Shown here: positions 2,665 through 32,805 of the stretch, piece by piece
Layout of the letters: every line of letters starts with the position of its first letter
Numbering within the stretch: the stretch's first letter is position 1
Origin: a virus
DNA length: 41,456 bases
Reading direction: 5' to 3' (one strand)
UHGV virus genome: UHGV-1460059
Made by a program: the position numbers and the translations under genes
Notes under the pieces: generated by a model
The model's database searches: none
The model's input: only the letters and a program-made list of their open reading frames with translations
Told to the model about the DNA's origin: nothing

Positions 2665-3209
2665 GCCTCCATCGCTTTATCCGGTTTGTCGGTGTTACTG
2701 CCCTGACCGTTCTCTCTGTGACGATGCCCGTTATAGGCAAGCCGCATCGCTGACATGGTAGTGCCGCTGGAGTCGCACAGGTCTTTCACCTGTCCTGTCA
2801 CTTCCAGGTCCATTTCAAAACGTGCTTTAGGTGAATTGCGAAACGTGATCGTTTTACCTGCACCGTCCACCACGATCCCCTCCCGGGTCAGCGTCACAGA
2901 CTGCCCCTGATCGTCATAGACAGCCACCTCACCCGTCTGCAACCCTTTCAGGCGGTAGCGCCGGTCCGACACCGTAACAACCACCGCATGAGAACGGTCG
3001 CCATCCGGAAACAACACCACCGCTTCCGCGCCGCTGTTTGCCCTTGCGGTAAAACCGTAGGGTTCAAGATGTTCAACCCCGGCTTTGGGTTCACCGGCAA
3101 TCAGGGACACATCCACGGTCTGACATTTCGTGGCGGCACTGATGCTTTTCACCACTGCCCGCGCAATCAGGCCGAGAAGTTGTCGCTGCATGGCTTCAAT
3201 CGTCCTCAT
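2661..3209 (-). CDS. Baseplate assembly protein V-like / central spike (Mu gp45-like)
   Basis: 182-aa ORF in the gp45 position; length and position fit a gpV-type spike. Confidence 0.55.
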   Translation of the reverse strand: MRTIEAMQRQLLGLIARAVVKSISAATKCQTVDVSLIAGEPKAGVEHLEPYGFTARANSGAEAVVLFPDGDRSHAVVVTVSDRRYRLKGLQTGEVAVYDDQGQSVTLTREGIVVDGAGKTITFRNSPKARFEMDLEVTGQVKDLCDSSGTTMSAMRLAYNGHRHRENGQGSNTDKPDKAMEA

Positions 3210-25133: not shown

Positions 25134-25627
25134 TAAGCCCCCACGTAATTCCCTGACAGATACCACTCTTCACCCGATGCAGCGTGCTTGCTGCTTTTCC
25201 GTAAGCACCGCTCACGACGCGCCAGAAAATTGTTTCGTTCTGGCTGGGAGTGGCTTTCACGGAATGCCGCCATCCACACGGTTGCAGCACGACGGTATAA
25301 GCCCCTTGACTCCAGTTCTTCCGCCTGGCGGGTCAGGCACAAAATCACCCGGGGATCGTTAGTGCCGACATAGAAATTGCGCGCAGGTCTGGTTTCACGA
25401 ACTGGTTGTGGTTCCGGCTCCTGCGCTCTCTCAGTCAGGCGCGGGAAATGTCTGCGTGTATCCCCTTCACAACGGTGAGCCACACGCCCACTCTGACGTA
25501 ACTTGCTTGCTGACTGCAGAACGCGCTGCCGTGAGTAACCAGCAAAAGCATCCGCAATGTCTCCGGAAGTACACCCCGGATGGGCTTCAATGAATTTCTG
25601 AACGTCATTTAACAGACTCATGATCAC
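25133..25627 (-). CDS. PerC/ANR-like small regulator (tentative)
   Basis: LTRQAEELESRGLYRRAATVWMAAF resembles the PerC-family signature as recalled. Coupled to the replication gene by an overlapping stop/start. Confidence 0.35.
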   Translation of the reverse strand: MIMSLLNDVQKFIEAHPGCTSGDIADAFAGYSRQRVLQSASKLRQSGRVAHRCEGDTRRHFPRLTERAQEPEPQPVRETRPARNFYVGTNDPRVILCLTRQAEELESRGLYRRAATVWMAAFRESHSQPERNNFLARRERCLRKSSKHAASGEEWYLSGNYVGA

Positions 25628-26565
25628 CCCCTGAATCCTGCCGGGATCTGGCTGTAGTCCACGTTGTCGTAACTGGATTTGAAGTACGGGTCTTCGCGTT
25701 TTTCAGTGTACGTGCTTACGGACGGCGATAAGCGCAGGGAAAGCTCATCCCATTTTTCCCGCAGCTTCGACGGGCTGAGCACGTTACGGCACCAGAACGG
25801 ATCGCGGCTGACGCGGCTGTACATCTCGCAGATTTGTTTGTGAGTACGACCATCCTGCACACACATCAGGCGAATTTCGTTTGCCCAGGCTGTCCAGTTC
25901 GGTTCTTTGGGACGAACCACCTCGCCGTCACATTCGGCGGCCTGCTCGTACAGGGCGATGATTTTTTTCCAGAGCCACTGTGCGCAGGTCAAATCATCCT
26001 GCGTTCCCCACTGGCGCTTTTTAGGGCTGAATACAACCGCATCAGGATGGCGAGTTAAAAAATCCTGTTCATCCGTCTGCGTGTCCGGTTGCGAAGCGTC
26101 CGGACGAGAAGTTTTTTTATCTGACGGATCATGTTTTGATTTTACTGACGGATCCCCGCCAGATTCTGACGGGTGAAAACCCGCTTTTTTGCCAGATTTC
26201 GACGCATCAAATTTTGACGGGTCAGATTTTGATGCGTCAGATTTTGACGGGTCAGAATCTGACAGTTGAGAAAATGCCGCTGCCTGAAGCTTCGCAACGT
26301 TAAGCTGATAAACATTCGACGCATTGCGGTTACCCTGGCGACGCGCCTTACGCGTTAACCAGCCTTCTGCTTCCAGCCGTGCGATAGCCGTTCTGACGGT
26401 ACTCATCCCCGCGCCAATCTGGCGGGCAATGGTTTCAATTGATGGCCAGCACACACCTTCGTCATTACTGAAATCAGCCAGGCGGGCCATAATTGCCACG
26501 CTGGATAATTTCATGCCTGATGCAGCGCAACCATCCCATACATAGCCGGTTAATTTAGTGCTCAT
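25624..26565 (-). CDS. Replication initiator (lambda O analogue) with N-terminal winged HTH
   Basis: 313-aa protein; N-terminal HTH (…SIETIARQIGAGMSTVRTAIARLEAEGWL…); central low-complexity DPSKSDASKSDPSKFDASKS linker encoded by a DNA iteron array. Confidence 0.5.
   Translation of the reverse strand: MSTKLTGYVWDGCAASGMKLSSVAIMARLADFSNDEGVCWPSIETIARQIGAGMSTVRTAIARLEAEGWLTRKARRQGNRNASNVYQLNVAKLQAAAFSQLSDSDPSKSDASKSDPSKFDASKSGKKAGFHPSESGGDPSVKSKHDPSDKKTSRPDASQPDTQTDEQDFLTRHPDAVVFSPKKRQWGTQDDLTCAQWLWKKIIALYEQAAECDGEVVRPKEPNWTAWANEIRLMCVQDGRTHKQICEMYSRVSRDPFWCRNVLSPSKLREKWDELSLRLSPSVSTYTEKREDPYFKSSYDNVDYSQIPAGFRG
26119..26265. repeat. Iteron array (candidate origin of replication) inside the initiator gene
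   Basis: Tandem ~15-bp units TTTTGACGGGTCAGA / TTTTGATGCGTCAGA / TTTTGACGGGTCAGA plus degenerate copies (ATCTGACGGATCATG, TTACTGACGGATCCC, ATTCTGACGGGTGAA), flanked by T-runs. Confidence 0.55.
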
Positions 26566-26574
26566 GACCGACCT

Positions 26575-26913
26575 CTATTTCCCTGAATTTACGACGAAAC
26601 TGTTCGAGCGGGCTGAAGCACTCATGCTCATAGCCTTCGCGGAGGTAGATAACCCGTTGTGTTTCCGGCTCCCAACGAATGACTCTGACGGGCACTCCGT
26701 AGTGATCTTTGAACCAGCGGTTAACTTGTCGCAAAGGACTGTCTCCTTCTGCCGGTTGAAATCACCCACAGCCCACTCTGCAAAGCTGTGGGTTACAATT
26801 TCCCTGTCACCTGGTACATTTACTGCATAGCAATACTCCACCTTCGCTTTTCCACCCGGTACAGGAAGCGCAATCAGTTGCGAGCGACGGTAGTGTGTTG
26901 TTAAACTGTTCAT
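26575..26913 (-). CDS. Hypothetical early protein
   Basis: 112-aa ORF whose start has an ATGA overlap with the stop of the upstream gene. Confidence 0.4.
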
Positions 26914-27461
26914 GCGTTAGTTTCTCCACAGTCACGACACGCCACGGCGCCCGGAGCTGCACACTCGCGGGCGTCATTACTTTCTGAAATGCAAAAAATT
27001 TTGTAGACCAGTGCTGCATGCTCCTGCAGCTTCGAAATTGAGAGGTACAGCTCGTCGTTAATTGCTGTCTTCTCATGCGGTTCCACTACACCGTCTTCAA
27101 TTGCTGAACGAATCTGTTTTGAATAACTGCCGATCTGTTCAATGACTTCCAGCAGGCGCTGGTTAATATCGGCGTTGTCCACATCCTCGACGTCAGGAAG
27201 AGACACAAAGACGCCATTTGCAGACTGCGCCACAGCGTCAGCAATGAAGTGAGTTCCACCAGCACGTTGCAAAATCATTGCCCATCCCAGCGGGAAAATC
27301 TGATCGCCATCGGCACGAAGGCGGTTAAATAATGCGTTCTCTGTTACATCCAGCCAGTCAGCAGCTTCAGCGTACCCCCCCGGCAACGCTGCGATAGTTT
27401 TTCTGACAGCTTTCACGTACCACTCAGGCTGTTTTTCTACTTTCCAGTGATGCTTACCCAC
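26910..27461 (-). CDS. CII-like early regulatory protein (tentative)
   Basis: 183-aa ORF immediately downstream of cro, overlapping its stop; Cys-rich C-terminus. Confidence 0.4.
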
Positions 27462-27714
27462 GGTTCACCTCCTGTTCCTGTGGTTTAAACCCATTCTGAT
27501 TTTGGCTAGATTGAAAACGTGCCGGATAAAGAATCTGCATTTCGCTGACTTCACCCTTAAAAAAATTGGCTAAACGTTCTGCAAGCTCGATAGATGGAAT
27601 CTGCTCCAGCCTCTCAATACGACTCAACGTCGCTGGATTGACTTGAACACCCGCAGCAACATGCTGCAAAGTGAAACCATGCGCCTTACGCACATTTCGT
27701 AATGGTGATTGCAT
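27454..27714 (-). CDS. Cro-like HTH (XRE-family) repressor
   Basis: 86-aa HTH protein divergent from cI; GGAGGA 5 nt upstream of the ATG. Confidence 0.6.
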   Translation of the reverse strand: MQSPLRNVRKAHGFTLQHVAAGVQVNPATLSRIERLEQIPSIELAERLANFFKGEVSEMQILYPARFQSSQNQNGFKPQEQEVNRG

Positions 27715-27811
27715 ATGTCCTCCAGATATTGCGCGTTATGCATGTTATTTCACGCAATTATTTTGCGCAAGTTGATTTGCTTATCACGCAATAAAGAAAT
27801 GTAATAAACGC
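27715..27811. promoter_or_regulatory. Divergent cI/cro switch region: operators with PR-like and PRM-like promoters
   Basis: TTGC-N7-GCAA-type sites at 27729-27743 and 27777-27791, plus GCAA-ttatt-TTGC at 27755-27768. Candidate PRM: TTGCTT (27777-27782), 17 nt, TGTAAT (27800-27805), 6 nt to the cI ATG with no SD. Confidence 0.55.
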
Positions 27812-28504
27812 ATGAACATAGGAAACCGAGTCAGACAACTTCGCCAAGCGAAGAACATGAAAATCGCCGATCTCGCTGAAGCAATAGGAGTAGATGCGGC
27901 GAACATCTCGCGCTTAGAAACGGGTAAGCAAAAACAATTTACCGAACAAACACTGAGTAATATTGCCAAGAGCTTAGGTGTTGATATTGCTGATCTCTTT
28001 ACCTCTGCCCACAAAAGTAATACTGTATATAAAAACAGTAATAATGAGGATGTTGCGCAGGTGAAGGATGTGTTCCGTATTGAAATGCTGGATATCAGTG
28101 CCAGTGCGGGAAATGGCCTTATCCAGGGCGGTGATGTCATTGATGTGATTCATGCCATCGAATACAGAACTGATAATGCTGTATCAATGTTCGGCGGACG
28201 ACCAGCCAATCACATCAAAGTTATCAACGTTCGTGGGGACAGTATGTGTCCAACCATTGAGCCAGGAGATCTCATCTTCGTTGATGTCAGCATCAATCAG
28301 TTTGATGGTGATGGTATATATGTCTTTGGTTTTGATGACAAAATATACGTTAAAAGACTTCAAATGATTCCTGACAAACTGCTGGTGATTTCTGATAACC
28401 AGATTTACCGTGAATGGGGAATTACTAGCGAAAACGAACACCGATTCATGGTCTTTGGAAAGGTCTTAATCAGTCAGTCGCAAACCCTTAAGAGACATAA
28501 TTAA
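27812..28504 (+). CDS. cI: CI-type repressor (HTH + S24 LexA-like autopeptidase domain)
   Basis: N-terminal XRE-type HTH; C-terminal GDSMCPT (Ser) and VKRL (Lys) peptidase S24 motifs. Confidence 0.85.
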   Translation: MNIGNRVRQLRQAKNMKIADLAEAIGVDAANISRLETGKQKQFTEQTLSNIAKSLGVDIADLFTSAHKSNTVYKNSNNEDVAQVKDVFRIEMLDISASAGNGLIQGGDVIDVIHAIEYRTDNAVSMFGGRPANHIKVINVRGDSMCPTIEPGDLIFVDVSINQFDGDGIYVFGFDDKIYVKRLQMIPDKLLVISDNQIYREWGITSENEHRFMVFGKVLISQSQTLKRHN

Positions 28505-28523: not shown

Positions 28524-28546
28524 GGCCACCGAAAGGTGGCTTTTTA
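28524..28546 (+). terminator. Intrinsic terminator downstream of cI
   Basis: GGCCACC-GAAA-GGTGGC followed by TTTTTA. Confidence 0.65.
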
Positions 28547-28558
28547 TTACCTATAAAT

Positions 28559-28595
28559 TTGCATATTTCGCAAAAATAACTTGCATATATCGCAA
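28559..28595. promoter_or_regulatory. Second operator cluster (OL-like) with a candidate leftward early promoter
   Basis: Two copies of TTGCATAT(T/A)TCGCAA (28559-28573, 28581-28595), the same half-site family as the cI/cro operators. Possible -35 TTGCAT (28581-28586) and -10 TATCTT (28604-28609). Confidence 0.4.
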
Positions 28596-28785
28596 TTTAA
28601 TTTTATCTTTTGTTCCAGACCAACTACAGGATTACAACAAAATCTGGTTGCAACACGGTGCATGTGTCGTAAGCAGTCAGTAAATGTCAAAAACGAACAG
28701 GCAGGACGCCCACGAAGTAGCCGCCTGGGGCATATGAAGTCCAGGATGATTCGTTAGCAACAAAAAAGCGCCCTACAGGACGCTT

Positions 28786-28800
28786 AGCTCTTTAACAATC
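28786..28800 (+). promoter_or_regulatory. boxA-like element (nut-like) in the leader of the plus-strand early operon
   Basis: AGCTCTTTAACAATC closely resembles the rrn/lambdoid boxA consensus (GCTCTTTAACAA). No convincing boxB hairpin follows it. Confidence 0.35.
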
Positions 28801-28843
28801 TGGTCCCCATCAACAAGTAACTGATAACTTGAGGAGATGTGAA

Positions 28844-29050
28844 ATGCACAAAACAGAACCCAAAATCGTCGCGCCTGGCTACACAGATGAGGAAATTTAT
28901 GAGTGGATGACAAAGAAGCTGGCAGCTATAAACCAGCTTCGTGAAGTGCTGTCTTATCGACAGGAAACAATAGACTCCTTAAAAAAACTGGATCAGGAAA
29001 TCACGGTTTTATCACAGGATGTTACTTTAGATATTGTGCAGACAAATTAG
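28844..29050 (+). CDS. Hypothetical small protein (68 aa), first gene after the OL-like region
   Basis: ATG at 28844 with GAGGAG 7 nt upstream (MHKTEPKIVAPGYTDEEIYEWMTKKL…). 3' end overlaps a convergent gene. Confidence 0.35.
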   Translation: MHKTEPKIVAPGYTDEEIYEWMTKKLAAINQLREVLSYRQETIDSLKKLDQEITVLSQDVTLDIVQTN

Positions 29051-29456
29051 GATCCCATTCATTTTCGTCAAAATCATCAAAGTGATGAATTTGTGATCTC
29101 CAGTCTCGATAATCTAAAAATTTCTGGGCGGTTACGCTTATTTTATCAAGTGTGAGTTCATCCTGAATTGAAAGAAGAAGTTCATCAAATTTCATCTCAT
29201 TAATCTGTTTTGGCATCCAGTGATGCTTCATCAGAATAAGGTGAACCAGAGCCTTTTTCCCATTCAACTGATTATAGGGAGTGCCGAATTTCTTCCGGTG
29301 CTCATGTAAGACAAGGTCCAAAAGAGTAAGTAATGTTGCCCTTGATTCAACTTTGCTTATTTCGACTGATGACACTACCCCACTGATTTCAATGCCCCGA
29401 TACTTTCCAACATTTTCACAGTGGGATTTGTACAGCGTATAGATATTACCGGACAT
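29022..29456 (-). CDS. Hypothetical protein (144 aa), AT-rich, in the immunity region
   Basis: Long ORF in AT-rich DNA with AAGGA-like SD; no recognised motif. Tandem direct repeats lie in its upstream region. Confidence 0.45.
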   Translation of the reverse strand: MSGNIYTLYKSHCENVGKYRGIEISGVVSSVEISKVESRATLLTLLDLVLHEHRKKFGTPYNQLNGKKALVHLILMKHHWMPKQINEMKFDELLLSIQDELTLDKISVTAQKFLDYRDWRSQIHHFDDFDENEWDPNLSAQYLK

Positions 29457-29471
29457 TTCTTTTCCTTTTGC

Positions 29472-29523
29472 GTTGTTGGGGATAACCAGATTAACCGAAT
29501 CCTTGTTGTTGGGGAATAACCAG
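29472..29523. repeat. Tandem direct repeat upstream of the 144-aa gene (candidate regulator binding sites)
   Basis: gttgttggggataaccag (29472-29489) and gttgttggggaataaccag (29505-29523), about 33 bp centre to centre. Confidence 0.5.
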
Positions 29524-29597
29524 GTCCACCTCGCCTGATGTGGCTAAAAGCAGGCACATAACAGCTAAGTATTTTCAACCAGAGAGAATCCTTAGCG

Positions 29598-29876
29598 TTG
29601 TGGTGAATGCGGCTCAGCGCACGCGGGTTAAGGTTGAGGCTGACAGTCGACCTTCTGTGGATACCCACCCGCCTGGTGTGCAACCTTCGCCAGGCACCGG
29701 GAGGCACCCGGCACCACAACTTTATGCTGTGTGTAGTCCTGGCGGTACCAGCTTGTACCCTTGCTTCCGGCTGGTACCGTCCTTTTTACAAAACAGAGAA
29801 GAGCATCACCGGACGACGGGCTCATAACCCAATCCATCCGGGCGGCAGTCACCGCAGGTGTTCTTCTCTGTTTTGT
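29598..29876. other. GC-rich, ORF-poor, hairpin-dense non-coding element (candidate structured RNA or recombination/regulatory site)
   Basis: Perfect 15-bp inverted repeat 29788-29802 / 29862-29876; 9-10-bp IR 29744-29752 / 29770-29778; GCCTGG/CCAGGC 29671-29695; CCGGG/CCCGG 29697-29711; long-range TTGTGGTG/CACCACAA 29598-29605 / 29712-29719. All frames give Arg/Pro/Gly-rich non-protein-like ORFs. Confidence 0.4.
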
Positions 29877-29924
29877 GGAGAAACTAACCGACCTTGCAGG
29901 GTCGATATGATGAGGAGCAGCAAA

Positions 29925-30287
29925 ATGGCTAGCGAACGCAGTACTGATGTGCAGGCATTTATCGGGGAGCTGGACGGCGGCGTATTTGAAACCAAAATCG
30001 GCGCAGTTCTCAGTGAAGTCGCTTCCGGTGTGATGAACACGAAAACCAAAGGTAAGGTCTCGCTCAACCTGGAAATCGAACCGTTTGATGAGAACCGTGT
30101 GAAAATCAAACACAAACTCTCATATGTTCGCCCAACTAACCGCGGGAAAATTTCCGAAGAAGACACCACCGAAACGCCGATGTATGTCAATCGCGGTGGT
30201 CGCCTGACTATTCTGCAGGAAGACCAGGGACAATTACTGACTCTTGCCGGTGAACCTGACGGAAAACTCCGCGCAGCAGGTCGTTAA
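29925..30287 (+). CDS. yfdP: YfdP-like prophage protein
   Basis: ATG at 29925 with GAGGAG 7 nt upstream gives 120 aa. Size and the following gene neighbours match the K-12 CPS-53 yfdP-yfdQ-yfdR block as recalled. Confidence 0.45.
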   Translation: MASERSTDVQAFIGELDGGVFETKIGAVLSEVASGVMNTKTKGKVSLNLEIEPFDENRVKIKHKLSYVRPTNRGKISEEDTTETPMYVNRGGRLTILQEDQGQLLTLAGEPDGKLRAAGR

Positions 30288-31830: not shown

Positions 31831-31938
31831 AAATCAGCACGTACGAATTCAAACTCTGCCATAAAAGAACATATAAGTAATTTATTAACATATAGATATA
31901 GGTTATATTACAAATTGAAAAATTATTGGAGAGCAACA

Positions 31939-32805
31939 ATGAATCAAAATCCATTCTCATTCTATGACTTTCTTGGATATTTAATACCAGGTGGTTTTTT
32001 TATCCTATTAATGTATTTCTGTGGTTTGACATTCGATCTAGATATTGTTATTGACTTAAGTGAATTGCTCAGAGGTCAAAGTCAAATCTTTGGCATTTTG
32101 AACTACGCTTCAATAGTTATTATATCTTATATAGCTGGACATTTTATTTCTATCACGTCAGCATTTTTTATCGAAAAATACATGAATAAAGAATTAGGAT
32201 ATCCTTCCAAATATCTATTTAAAAAATTGATAGATACCTCAGAAAGCATTTGTAGCCCATCATGCGATGAGAGAAGCGCTGATAAAAAAACAAAAATAAA
32301 GAATCGCATAATCAAATGCGTATTATGCCCAATAATACTATGGGATTTTATAACACAAAAACTATGTTATTCTCAATCTCTACCATTTCATTTAGCTAAT
32401 ACAACATGGTTAATGATCAAAGAAGGTTATGAGAAAAAGTTCATAACAAATCGCCAATTATTACAAGATAAAAACGGACTTGATGATGATCTCTTCAGAT
32501 TGGCATATCATTATGTTTATGAGTTTTCAAAACAACATCAAACAAAAATTCAAAACTATGTTGCATTATATGGTTTTTGCAGAAACATATGTTTAATCTT
32601 TATAATTTCATTTTGGGTATCAGTTCCAACCTTTATTTATCGATTATGTACTCATAGTGATTATCTTTATAGTTTACTTTCAATAATGCTTAGCTTTTTC
32701 TTCGTCTATGTTTTCTATGTTGGTTTTGTTAAATTTTATAGAAGATATACTTTAGAAGTATTAATGGCATTTGCTGTACTTCAAAGTAACGACACTATTC
32801 GTTAA
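31939..32805 (+). CDS. Polytopic membrane protein, very AT-rich (accessory gene upstream of xis/int)
   Basis: ATG at 31939 with GGAGAG upstream. Several hydrophobic segments (LGYLIPGGFFILLMYFCGL; IFGILNYASIVIISYIAGHFISI; ICLIFIISFWVSVPTFIY; LLSIMLSFFFVYVFYVGFV). GC content is far below the flanking phage genes. Confidence 0.45.
   Translation: MNQNPFSFYDFLGYLIPGGFFILLMYFCGLTFDLDIVIDLSELLRGQSQIFGILNYASIVIISYIAGHFISITSAFFIEKYMNKELGYPSKYLFKKLIDTSESICSPSCDERSADKKTKIKNRIIKCVLCPIILWDFITQKLCYSQSLPFHLANTTWLMIKEGYEKKFITNRQLLQDKNGLDDDLFRLAYHYVYEFSKQHQTKIQNYVALYGFCRNICLIFIISFWVSVPTFIYRLCTHSDYLYSLLSIMLSFFFVYVFYVGFVKFYRRYTLEVLMAFAVLQSNDTIR

Follow-up and report, generated by a model that had tools for sequence, protein, structure and literature searches.

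In phage lambda, the rexAB genes are located between cI and OL and are co-transcribed with cI. The lambda gene sieB, whose product is a membrane protein, is convergent to N. Control at the RNA level through convergent 3' overlaps is represented by lambda OOP/cII and by the type I pairs bsrG/SR4 and txpA/RatA of Bacillus prophages. These systems are compared here with a convergent gene pair at positions 28844-29456 of the virus genome UHGV-1460059, the full stretch of 41,456 nucleotides (nt) being referred to as the window. The pair consists of a plus-strand gene for a YdfC-like protein of 68 amino acids (aa) and a minus-strand gene for a 144-aa protein of the ECs1072 family. Its arrangement recurs in strongly diverged loci, and the pair is interpreted, with a probability of about 0.5, as a self-contained two-gene prophage accessory ('moron') cassette tied to the lysis-lysogeny state.

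In P22, an antisense RNA (sas) and a second polypeptide (Esc) allow escape from the phage's own sieB exclusion; OOP is listed in the same source (PMC12197685). No function is known for the YdfC protein encoded by the Qin prophage of K-12 (PMC5069750). The transcript of ECs1072 was detected on Sakai microarrays and was 2.1-fold lower at one growth-phase transition (PMC2241611). The ST64B prophage gene STMMW_20121 has its own promoter, is expressed antisense to lytic genes under almost all conditions, and was proposed as a candidate accessory or regulatory gene; the report covers neither its partner gene, nor the overlap, nor its family, and gives no function (PMC7067206). The repressor-proximal region is a common moron site (PMC7067206).

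Like rexAB, the window pair is a two-gene, AT-rich, lysogeny-associated cargo adjoining the immunity region, and an earlier note, made from the sequence alone, had assigned it to a rexAB-like position. This placement did not hold. The window genes are convergent and lie beyond OL-like repeats, the larger is encoded on the other strand from cI, and the module is not co-transcribed with cI; the lambda N/sieB region is the closer positional analogue. Homology to RexA or RexB was not detected (PHROGs gave families of unknown function only, PADLOC 0 matches). Shared with P22 and lambda sieB is the presence of accessory genes in the early-left region that are expressed in lysogens, the latter being seen here via the ST64B homologue. 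Esc is an internal sieB product, whereas the window partner is a separate convergent gene, and the 144-aa model is that of a helical protein without recognised relatives. No SieB homology was found in PHROGs or Pfam.

With OOP/cII and the type I pairs the locus shares 3' overlaps of tens to about 100 nt, each RNA being predicted to end inside the other unit. The 3' overlap is, however, the only feature in common with type I toxin-antitoxin systems: both window partners encode conserved proteins, and the larger of these, helical and 144 aa long, is no small hydrophobic peptide. P22 sieB/esc/sas and lambda OOP/cII are the closest functional analogies. The closest described locus is that of STMMW_20121, which has a convergent small partner, an overlap, its own promoter and an antisense orientation to lytic genes, but is located in a slot between Q-type and holin genes and not beside cI. 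Like the 68-aa gene, ydfC in the dicBF operon of Qin is promoter-proximal in an operon facing away from the repressor, and phrog_1744 is also the family of an annotated YdfC-family protein. Qin-like phages differ in having no facing ECs1072 gene; DicF and dicB follow instead.

The gene pair and its protein families

The convergent pair with a strong ribosome-binding site, a 29-bp overlap and AT-rich DNA, as described in the earlier note, was confirmed from the open reading frames (ORFs) and the sequence. The 68-aa ORF extends over 28844-29050 on the plus strand (ATG at 28844, stop at 29048-29050) and is preceded by GAGGAG at 28831-28836, 7 nt before the ATG; an alternative upstream TTG at 28829 would give 73 aa. 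The 144-aa ORF extends over 29022-29456 on the minus strand, with AAGGA 6-10 nt upstream of its start. The two coding sequences (CDSs) overlap at 29022-29050. GC content is 0.37-0.40 in the pair and 0.53-0.58 in the next ~400 bp to the right. The pair is located downstream of cI and the OL-like operators, within the early-left transcription unit, and both genes are annotated in RefSeq (WP_000016389.1, 144 aa; WP_000549623.1, 68 aa).

Neither protein had been assigned to a family in the earlier note. Both belong to named families, NF033230/phrog_5286 for the 144-aa protein and phrog_1744 for the 68-aa protein, all of which are functionally uncharacterised. The 144-aa protein matches NCBIfam NF033230, 'ECs1072 family phage-associated protein', with 157.8 bits (cut-off 70), and the alignment runs end to end (residues 4-144 on profile positions 2-142). 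It matches phrog_5286 at 1.5e-90 over residues 1-144 of 144, and WP_000016389.1 carries the ECs1072-family name in RefSeq. An exhaustive profile-free search yielded 65 distant relatives; a genome-contig scan and one viral scan returned identical copies only. Full-length relatives are mostly single-domain proteins of about 145-155 aa. In a 51-sequence family alignment, numbered by the window protein, H72 and W134 are invariant and R54, L64, G66, A69 and W80 are conserved at 90% or more, all of them present in the window protein.

AlphaFold2 with the family alignment gave a confident all-alpha model of the 144-aa protein (predicted local distance difference test, pLDDT, 93.8; predicted template modelling score, pTM, 0.88), for which a structure search returned no PDB or viral counterpart. 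The best hit of a PDB sequence profile search was myoglobin at E 0.44. Pfam and PADLOC gave no match to the 144-aa protein, Pfam gave no functional lead on the 51 family members, and PADLOC-DB v2.0.0 (2023 library) gave 0 families at E up to 1 for either protein. The remote-homology and structure check that had been suggested for the 144-aa protein thus returned no core phage function; for the pair as a whole, no such homology was found in Pfam, PHROGs or structure searches. Literature searches found no functional study on ECs1072 or the RefSeq accession.

The 68-aa protein matches phrog_1744 at 6e-35 over residues 1-68 of 68. In BLASTP it is 41% identical over 66 residues (E 8e-18) to URC10036.1, annotated 'YdfC family', which itself matches phrog_1744 at 1.9e-39. 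The source of URC10036.1 is phage vB_EcoS-640R1, where the gene is promoter-proximal in a dicC/dicF/dicB-type early operon; the link to YdfC runs via the annotation of such phage homologues and not via the K-12 Qin sequence itself. AlphaFold2 predicts, from a shallow alignment, an unstructured N-terminus followed by a single long helix at residues 15-67 (pLDDT 87). An N-terminal motif, EPxIVxPG..E(I/L)xEW(M/L), stands ahead of the helix. The small partners in the distant clade belong to phrog_3501. Alignment of the phrog_1744 and phrog_3501 types by hhalign gave a probability of 96.3% (E 1.6e-9, 57 columns), and both types share the motif (E/Q)P.(I/F)(V/F).PG...E(L/I).(E/D)W(L/M), followed by a heptad-like helix.

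Conservation of the pairing

Diverged ECs1072 loci were gathered and all their ORFs were scanned with small hidden Markov models. A YdfC-like ORF on the opposite strand, just 3' of the large gene, is present in 26 of 28 distinct ECs1072-homologue loci, among which identity of the large gene falls to about 22-38%. The CDSs overlap by 29-113 bp in 25 of the 28, and this recurrence bears out the pair as a real unit, as the earlier note had treated it. Orientation is constant across the loci, the small gene being co-directional with the lytic operon and the ECs1072 gene opposed to it.

The two genes also travel together. Of 5426 complete E. coli genomes, 414 contain the small-gene segment, 421 the large-gene segment and 407 the complete module. 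Eleven records of the phage collection have a phrog_3501-type small gene; in 10 of them the large gene is present too (truncated in 2), and SKA5 has the small gene alone. Distances among large proteins correlate with those among small proteins (Mantel r 0.80 overall, 0.70 within the clade), and none of 2000 permutations reached as high a value. The correlation fits joint inheritance, and plain linkage would give the same result. In one Escherichia albertii locus (L007), the large gene is intact and 72% identical to that of the window and the partner is frameshifted; over its first 48 residues the small ORF differs from the window ORF at one residue (L36Q). This combination shows that recombination has taken place within the pair.

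An incidental adjacency, with an ordinary early YdfC gene placed beside an unrelated moron and a functionless overlap, would be in keeping with the dicBF (pL-like) operon, where YdfC-type genes have no ECs1072 gene beside them, and with the E. albertii recombination. The Mantel result is not decisive here, as neighbours in mosaic phages co-diverge anyway. Yet pairing, orientation and overlap recur in an unrelated slot beside the Q-lysis genes, with partners at about 14-38% identity. In phage PhiR29_1, moreover, a cassette swap has removed both genes, and co-occurrence in E. coli genomes is near-complete. Chance neighbourhood of this kind is considered very improbable.

Coding status and selection

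Ratios of non-synonymous to synonymous substitution rates (dN/dS) were calculated by the Nei-Gojobori method across the distant (Q-lysis) clade. The median was 0.13 for the large gene (66 pairs) and 0.19 for the non-overlapping codons 1-58 of the small ORF (120 pairs), and by these values both genes are under purifying selection. For the overlapping tail of the small ORF the median was 0.80 (342 pairs), and the tail is therefore set by the conserved C-terminus of the large protein on the other strand, which has the motif ..(D/E)EW.P... The window small protein stops sooner than the partners in the distant clade. A count of 0 non-synonymous changes in 83 copies of the 144-aa gene was discarded as an ascertainment artefact, the loci having been picked at 100% protein identity.

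If the 68-aa ORF were untranslated, the region would serve only as the 3' untranslated part of the mRNA for the 144-aa protein, or as a target of antisense RNA, and the ORF would be a by-product. Use of a terminator at 28785-28766 would indeed place the whole ORF antisense within the 144-aa transcript, near-identical copies show weak constraint, frameshifts occur at a run of seven A residues, and the ORF is unannotated in the SfIV record. Against this stand the GAGGAG sequence 7 nt upstream of the ATG, the conservation at the protein level to the YdfC family (41%) and to phrog_3501 members despite diverged DNA, the dN/dS of 0.19 in non-overlapping codons of the Q-lysis clade, and a confident helical model. 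A lack of translation can be regarded as highly improbable; incidental adjacency and a non-coding small ORF are both unlikely.

Overlap and terminators

Antisense interplay had been proposed in the earlier note and is a reasonable inference from the conserved overlap and from a terminator-like hairpin within the partner ORF. In the window, this hairpin of the 144-aa transcript is located at 28915-28940 on the minus strand, inside the 68-aa ORF and 82 nt after the 144-aa stop; it reads GAAGCTGGTTTATAGCTGCCAGCTTC then TTTGTCATCC, and its T tract is weak. In the Q-lysis clade, 20 of 24 loci have an ECs1072-strand terminator-like hairpin 17-45 nt past the stop, within the partner ORF; the hairpin is retained across loci while the stem sequence differs. 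A strong intrinsic terminator of the minus-strand unit follows in the window at 28766-28785 (AAGCGTCCTGTAGGGCGCTT then TTTTGTTGCT), 237 nt past the 144-aa stop. If it is used, the 3' portion of the 144-aa transcript would cover the whole 68-aa gene in antisense. On the opposite strand, a terminator ~100 nt upstream of the ECs1072 start occupies the expected tR' position in 14 of the 24 Q-lysis loci. These terminators are sequence-pattern predictions, and the transcript ends drawn from them give predicted RNA overlaps of at least 100 nt.

In the Q-lysis clade, an inverted repeat with compensatory changes was also observed ahead of the ECs1072 genes. It extends across a TGnTAT(T/C)GT extended -10-like motif up to the ribosome-binding site (L018:2949-2996, L130:2292-2339, equivalents in L023-L041). 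In L018 (fold z -4.6) it reads GTTTGATATTGT...ACAATATCAAAC, and in L026 it reads GTCTGTTATCGTT...ACCATACAGAC. The repeat may be an operator or a hairpin of the 5' untranslated region.

Expression of the homologous pair in ST64B

The ECs1072 homologue of ST64B (L130:2345-2779, equal to AY055382 36435-36869) is unannotated in that record. Its partner Sb50 (2709-3068, AY055382 36146-36505) is annotated with a start ~100 nt too far upstream. The two overlap by 71 bp and are located between a Q-type gene and a holin gene. The ST64B homologue is 32% identical to the 144-aa protein over residues 52-143 (tblastn E 6e-6), and both match the family profile. Table S5 of PMC7067206 lists STMMW_20121 at 2090066-2090500 (435 bp, beside a holin gene) and STMMW_20131 at 2090430-2090789. 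These correspond to the ST64B ECs1072 homologue and Sb50, because the lengths, the 71-bp overlap and the neighbours coincide.

Expression in lysogens, which the earlier note had anticipated, is seen for this homologue: STMMW_20121 reaches 70-270 transcripts per million (TPM) in 16 of 17 conditions (PMC7067206). The small partner STMMW_20131 has TPM values of 23-258, as compared with 0.3-33 for the neighbouring holin gene and 1.5-7 for the neighbouring Q-type gene sb49 (STMMW_20141); for scale, BTP1 cI is at about 100-290 in 16 of 17 conditions (PMC7067206). In ST64B the pair is among the few prophage loci transcribed at repressor level in lysogens. From InSPI2 to peroxide and nitric oxide (NO) shock, STMMW_20121 falls from 269 to 113 and 105 TPM, while STMMW_20131 rises from 108 to 148 and 258 TPM and lytic genes go up (PMC7067206). 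These opposite shifts have the direction expected from convergent interference; the values are single ones per condition and the reading is not that of the authors. At the end of the ST64B Q-type gene, ~100 nt upstream of the small ORF, a pR'-like promoter is found, TTGAAA-16-TATGAT, with 10 of 12 positions of the sigma-70 consensus. The small gene is probably within the constitutive pR' leader, which would account for its lysogen expression.

As a separate observation, peroxide and NO shock bring STnc1310 and the yfdP- and yfdQ-like genes downstream of cI to TPM 1000-2400 in ST64B lysogens (PMC7067206 Table S5, D23580 2099207-2099280 and 2099534-2100952). It follows that the yfdPQR block, which is also downstream of the pair in the window, is strongly induced early.

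Tight two-gene linkage with co-divergence and the joint expression of both ST64B genes in lysogens would also be expected of a toxin-antitoxin-like addiction or stress module, in which one protein would inhibit growth and the other would neutralise it, the 3' overlap would add control at the RNA level, and the benefit would be prophage stabilisation and not defence against phages. The overlap with embedded terminators points the same way. The E. albertii locus, with an intact large gene and a frameshifted partner, would be tolerable in such a module only if the C-terminus of the small protein is dispensable. No toxin or antitoxin family was matched in Pfam, NCBIfam or PADLOC, however, and the genes are convergent and not an autoregulated operon. 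The large gene also occurs alone (L006, L029), as does the small gene (Qin-like phages, SKA5), which is unusual for an obligate pair. An addiction module is therefore held to be improbable.

The two slots and their cargo

The pair occupies two genomic slots. In the window it is right behind the OL-like operators and presumed pL, as in E. albertii L007 and, loosely, in the Providencia locus L015. In most distant relatives it is located between a Q-type antiterminator gene and holin/lysozyme genes.

The left border of the window slot is marked by a conserved non-coding element of ~60 nt at 28694-28753 on the plus strand. The element, just past the OL-like repeats, is 86-100% identical in SfV, SfII, ST64B, Pectobacterium ZF40 and phages of Yersinia, Klebsiella, Pantoea and Citrobacter, and none of these has it annotated. 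A leader element in the early-left transcript, whether nut-like, put-like or of another type, is one possibility; the pL-proximal leader 28617-28843 showed no unusual RNA structure (z 0.2). STnc1310 was considered as this element and rejected, being ST64B-specific cargo ~150 nt further on in the same slot. The right border is a GC-rich STnc100-like structured RNA at 29567-29790 on the plus strand, between the module and yfdP. It matches Rfam RF02076 (STnc100) over the full model 1-206 with 42.4 bits (gathering score 47; E 1.8e-7) and ends in a terminator hairpin, GGTACCAGC...GCTGGTACC, then a T run. At gathering thresholds, Rfam returned nothing in the window; in E-value mode it returned nothing inside the pair and only the flanking STnc100-like element. 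The region is also conserved in SfV, SfII, ST64B and Stx2c phages.

Cargo in this slot is variable: orf33 and a terminator in SfV, the 63-aa minus-strand gene SfII_36 in SfII, a minus-strand coiled-coil/zinc-ribbon protein in PhiR29_1, and the small RNA STnc1310 in the cI-side slot of ST64B. In PhiR29_1 the flanks are retained at 28689-28803 and from 29472, and both pair genes have been replaced together. The leader and presumed promoter of the 144-aa gene, at 29457-29530 on the minus strand, contains direct repeats CTGGTTAT(T)CCCCAACAAC, with copies at 29472-29489 and 29505-29523 (plus-strand coordinates, read on the minus strand). The first copy is directly ahead of AAGGA and the second has AAGGA 5 nt downstream. 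This leader is kept along with the gene in the 56% homologue L006. PhiR29_1 is 98.7% identical to 29472-29950, repeats included, ahead of its unrelated cargo gene, and the hairpin at 28766-28785 ends that different minus-strand gene as well. Since PhiR29_1 shares both the leader and the strong terminator around other cargo, the minus-strand unit looks like a promoter- and terminator-bounded cargo site, and the repeat-bearing leader may be a portable promoter or leader.

The positions of the slots, head-on at the start of antiterminated operons (pL, pR'), could also reflect a self-regulatory or insulating module and not a defence. Such a module would restrain leaky transcription into the early-left or lysis genes during lysogeny, or would adjust when induction and lysis occur, with both proteins acting on the phage's own transcription or antitermination machinery. 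Both slots are directly behind lytic promoters, as inferred here from the OL-like operators, and upstream of a terminator-like element, namely the STnc100-like RNA in the window and the tR'-like hairpins in 14 of 24 loci. The pR'-like promoter just upstream of the ST64B small gene, the repressor-like lysogen expression of the ST64B pair, and the palindrome with compensatory changes over the TGnTATTGT extended -10-like motif in the Q-lysis clade are further points in its favour. The slot is variable, however (SfV orf33, SfII_36, the PhiR29_1 zinc-ribbon gene, ST64B STnc1310), and the module is therefore dispensable for the phage life cycle. Pure insulation needs no two proteins under purifying selection, and structure searches recognised no DNA- or RNA-binding fold. 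Regulation of the phage by its own pair is judged rather doubtful on balance.

Proposed role of the cassette

The preferred reading remains that of an accessory cassette coupled to the lysis-lysogeny state. A variable slot, low GC content and a terminator are moron features seen in the window itself; lysogen expression from an own promoter comes from the ST64B homologue only. In the lysogen, the ECs1072 protein would be produced from its own promoter. Once the lytic promoters (pL, Q-modified pR') fire, polymerase would cross the small gene and enter the ECs1072 gene in antisense. Such read-through would lower ECs1072 expression, through collision and RNA duplex formation, and would raise the level of the small protein, which is the foremost candidate for a direct partner or antagonist of the ECs1072 protein. 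To the lysogen, the effector would provide superinfection exclusion or abortive infection, and it would have to be shut off for the prophage's own lytic growth. Exclusion or abortive infection as the function of the effector is a tentative suggestion. In its favour, the slots are recognised cargo and defence sites, and in one Proteus prophage (L011) genes for SIR2_2 and DUF87 are found ~1.4 kb from the pair.

Several observations weigh against this reading. The expression data are those of a homologue that is ~32% identical over the C-terminal two thirds and occupies another genomic slot. The ST64B small gene is also strongly expressed in lysogens, and hence there is no lytic-only antagonist there. 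The region ahead of the 144-aa gene in the window gave no match to the sigma-70 consensus, and PADLOC, Pfam and structure searches gave no biochemical lead for either protein. The pairing also has exceptions: the 56% homologue L006 has no small partner, L029 has a convergent GGDEF gene in its place, the partner in L015 is 471 bp distant, and in Qin-like phages YdfC-type genes are found unaccompanied by an ECs1072 gene. The 68-aa ORF has 10 synonymous and 13 non-synonymous sites in 83 near-identical copies from E. coli and Shigella, which indicates weak constraint, and frameshift variants occur at an A7 run at 28981-28987 (plus strand), a frameshift hotspot. Variants P0047, P0052 and P0056 and E. 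albertii L007 keep residues 1-48 and are then out of frame. Given the weak constraint and these frameshifts, the C-terminal third of the 68-aa protein is probably less important in the clade of the window.

Genomic setting and neighbouring features

The window represents an SfIV/SfV/SfII-like temperate phage of Shigella and E. coli, and its segment 28500-30300 is 98-99.6% identical to SfIV and several E. coli phages. To the left of the pair are an O-like replication gene (25624-26565, minus strand), a gene for a CII-like regulator with a Phage_CP76 domain (26910-27461, minus strand), a cro-like helix-turn-helix gene (27454-27714, minus strand) and cI (27812-28504, plus strand; helix-turn-helix and Peptidase_S24). 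A terminator-like hairpin of cI, GGCCACCGAAAGGTGGCT then TTTTATT, is located at 28524-28541 on the plus strand, left of the slot; its counterpart in SfV and SfII is annotated as a putative rho-independent terminator. It is followed at 28559-28595 by two OL-like operator repeats, TTGCATAT(T/A)TCGCAA, in exact copies starting at 28559 and 28581, and a cro-cI intergenic site at 27777 resembles them. These repeats are presumed to mark the pL region, reading rightwards; a consensus scan called no promoter at 28559-28595. svsR (PMC12803456) was set aside as a neighbouring element, being located at the cI 3' end.

To the right of the pair are yfdP-, yfdQ- (DUF2303) and yfdR-like genes on the plus strand, with xis and int beyond them in relatives. 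The yfd genes run on the plus strand toward xis and int, and the early-left operon is therefore rightward in window coordinates. Parts of 29567-29790 are similar to sequence lying 3' of DicF in a phage of the Qin-like type. In the SfIV record, spurious ORFs (SfIVp35 and an extended SfIVp34) are drawn across this region, and the 68-aa gene is left without annotation.

An AT-rich ORF of 296 aa follows the yfdR-like gene at 31915-32805 on the plus strand. Its product is hydrophobic by eye and has a weak PADLOC match (E 1.4e-5) to Csx27, a type VI-B CRISPR-associated membrane protein; the NCBIfam match is far under cut-off. It may be a second cargo gene. In Proteus prophages with identical copies of the pair, one locus (L011:5892-8453) has SIR2_2 and DUF87 (HerA-like) genes where another (L010:5802-7151) has a gene for a 449-aa protein, an exchange that marks an adjoining cargo hotspot.

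Implications

A conserved pairing is described here that links the ECs1072 and YdfC-like families, previously unlinked. Both proteins carry annotations as hypothetical. The pair is easily overlooked, as one or both genes are wrongly annotated in several reference phage records. About 7.5% of complete E. coli genomes carry it, at least 1000 Salmonella contigs have the ST64B version, and the cassette also occurs in prophages of Shigella, Klebsiella, Proteus and Providencia.

A more far-reaching proposal, speculative and unlikely as it stands, is that the ECs1072/YdfC-like pair is a widespread two-component prophage immunity switch, in which an effector of new fold, transcribed head-on against pL or pR', would protect the lysogen from incoming phages. 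Once the resident prophage became lytic, the effector would be disarmed at two levels, by convergent read-through with antisense pairing of the RNAs and by a coiled-coil YdfC-like partner protein. If true, this would give ydfC a first function, as an orphaned antagonist. A role in defence would add a new effector fold and a self-immunity logic. A head-on, 3'-overlapping two-protein unit at the entry of an antiterminated operon would in turn offer a compact model for the coupling of accessory genes to the lysis-lysogeny state.

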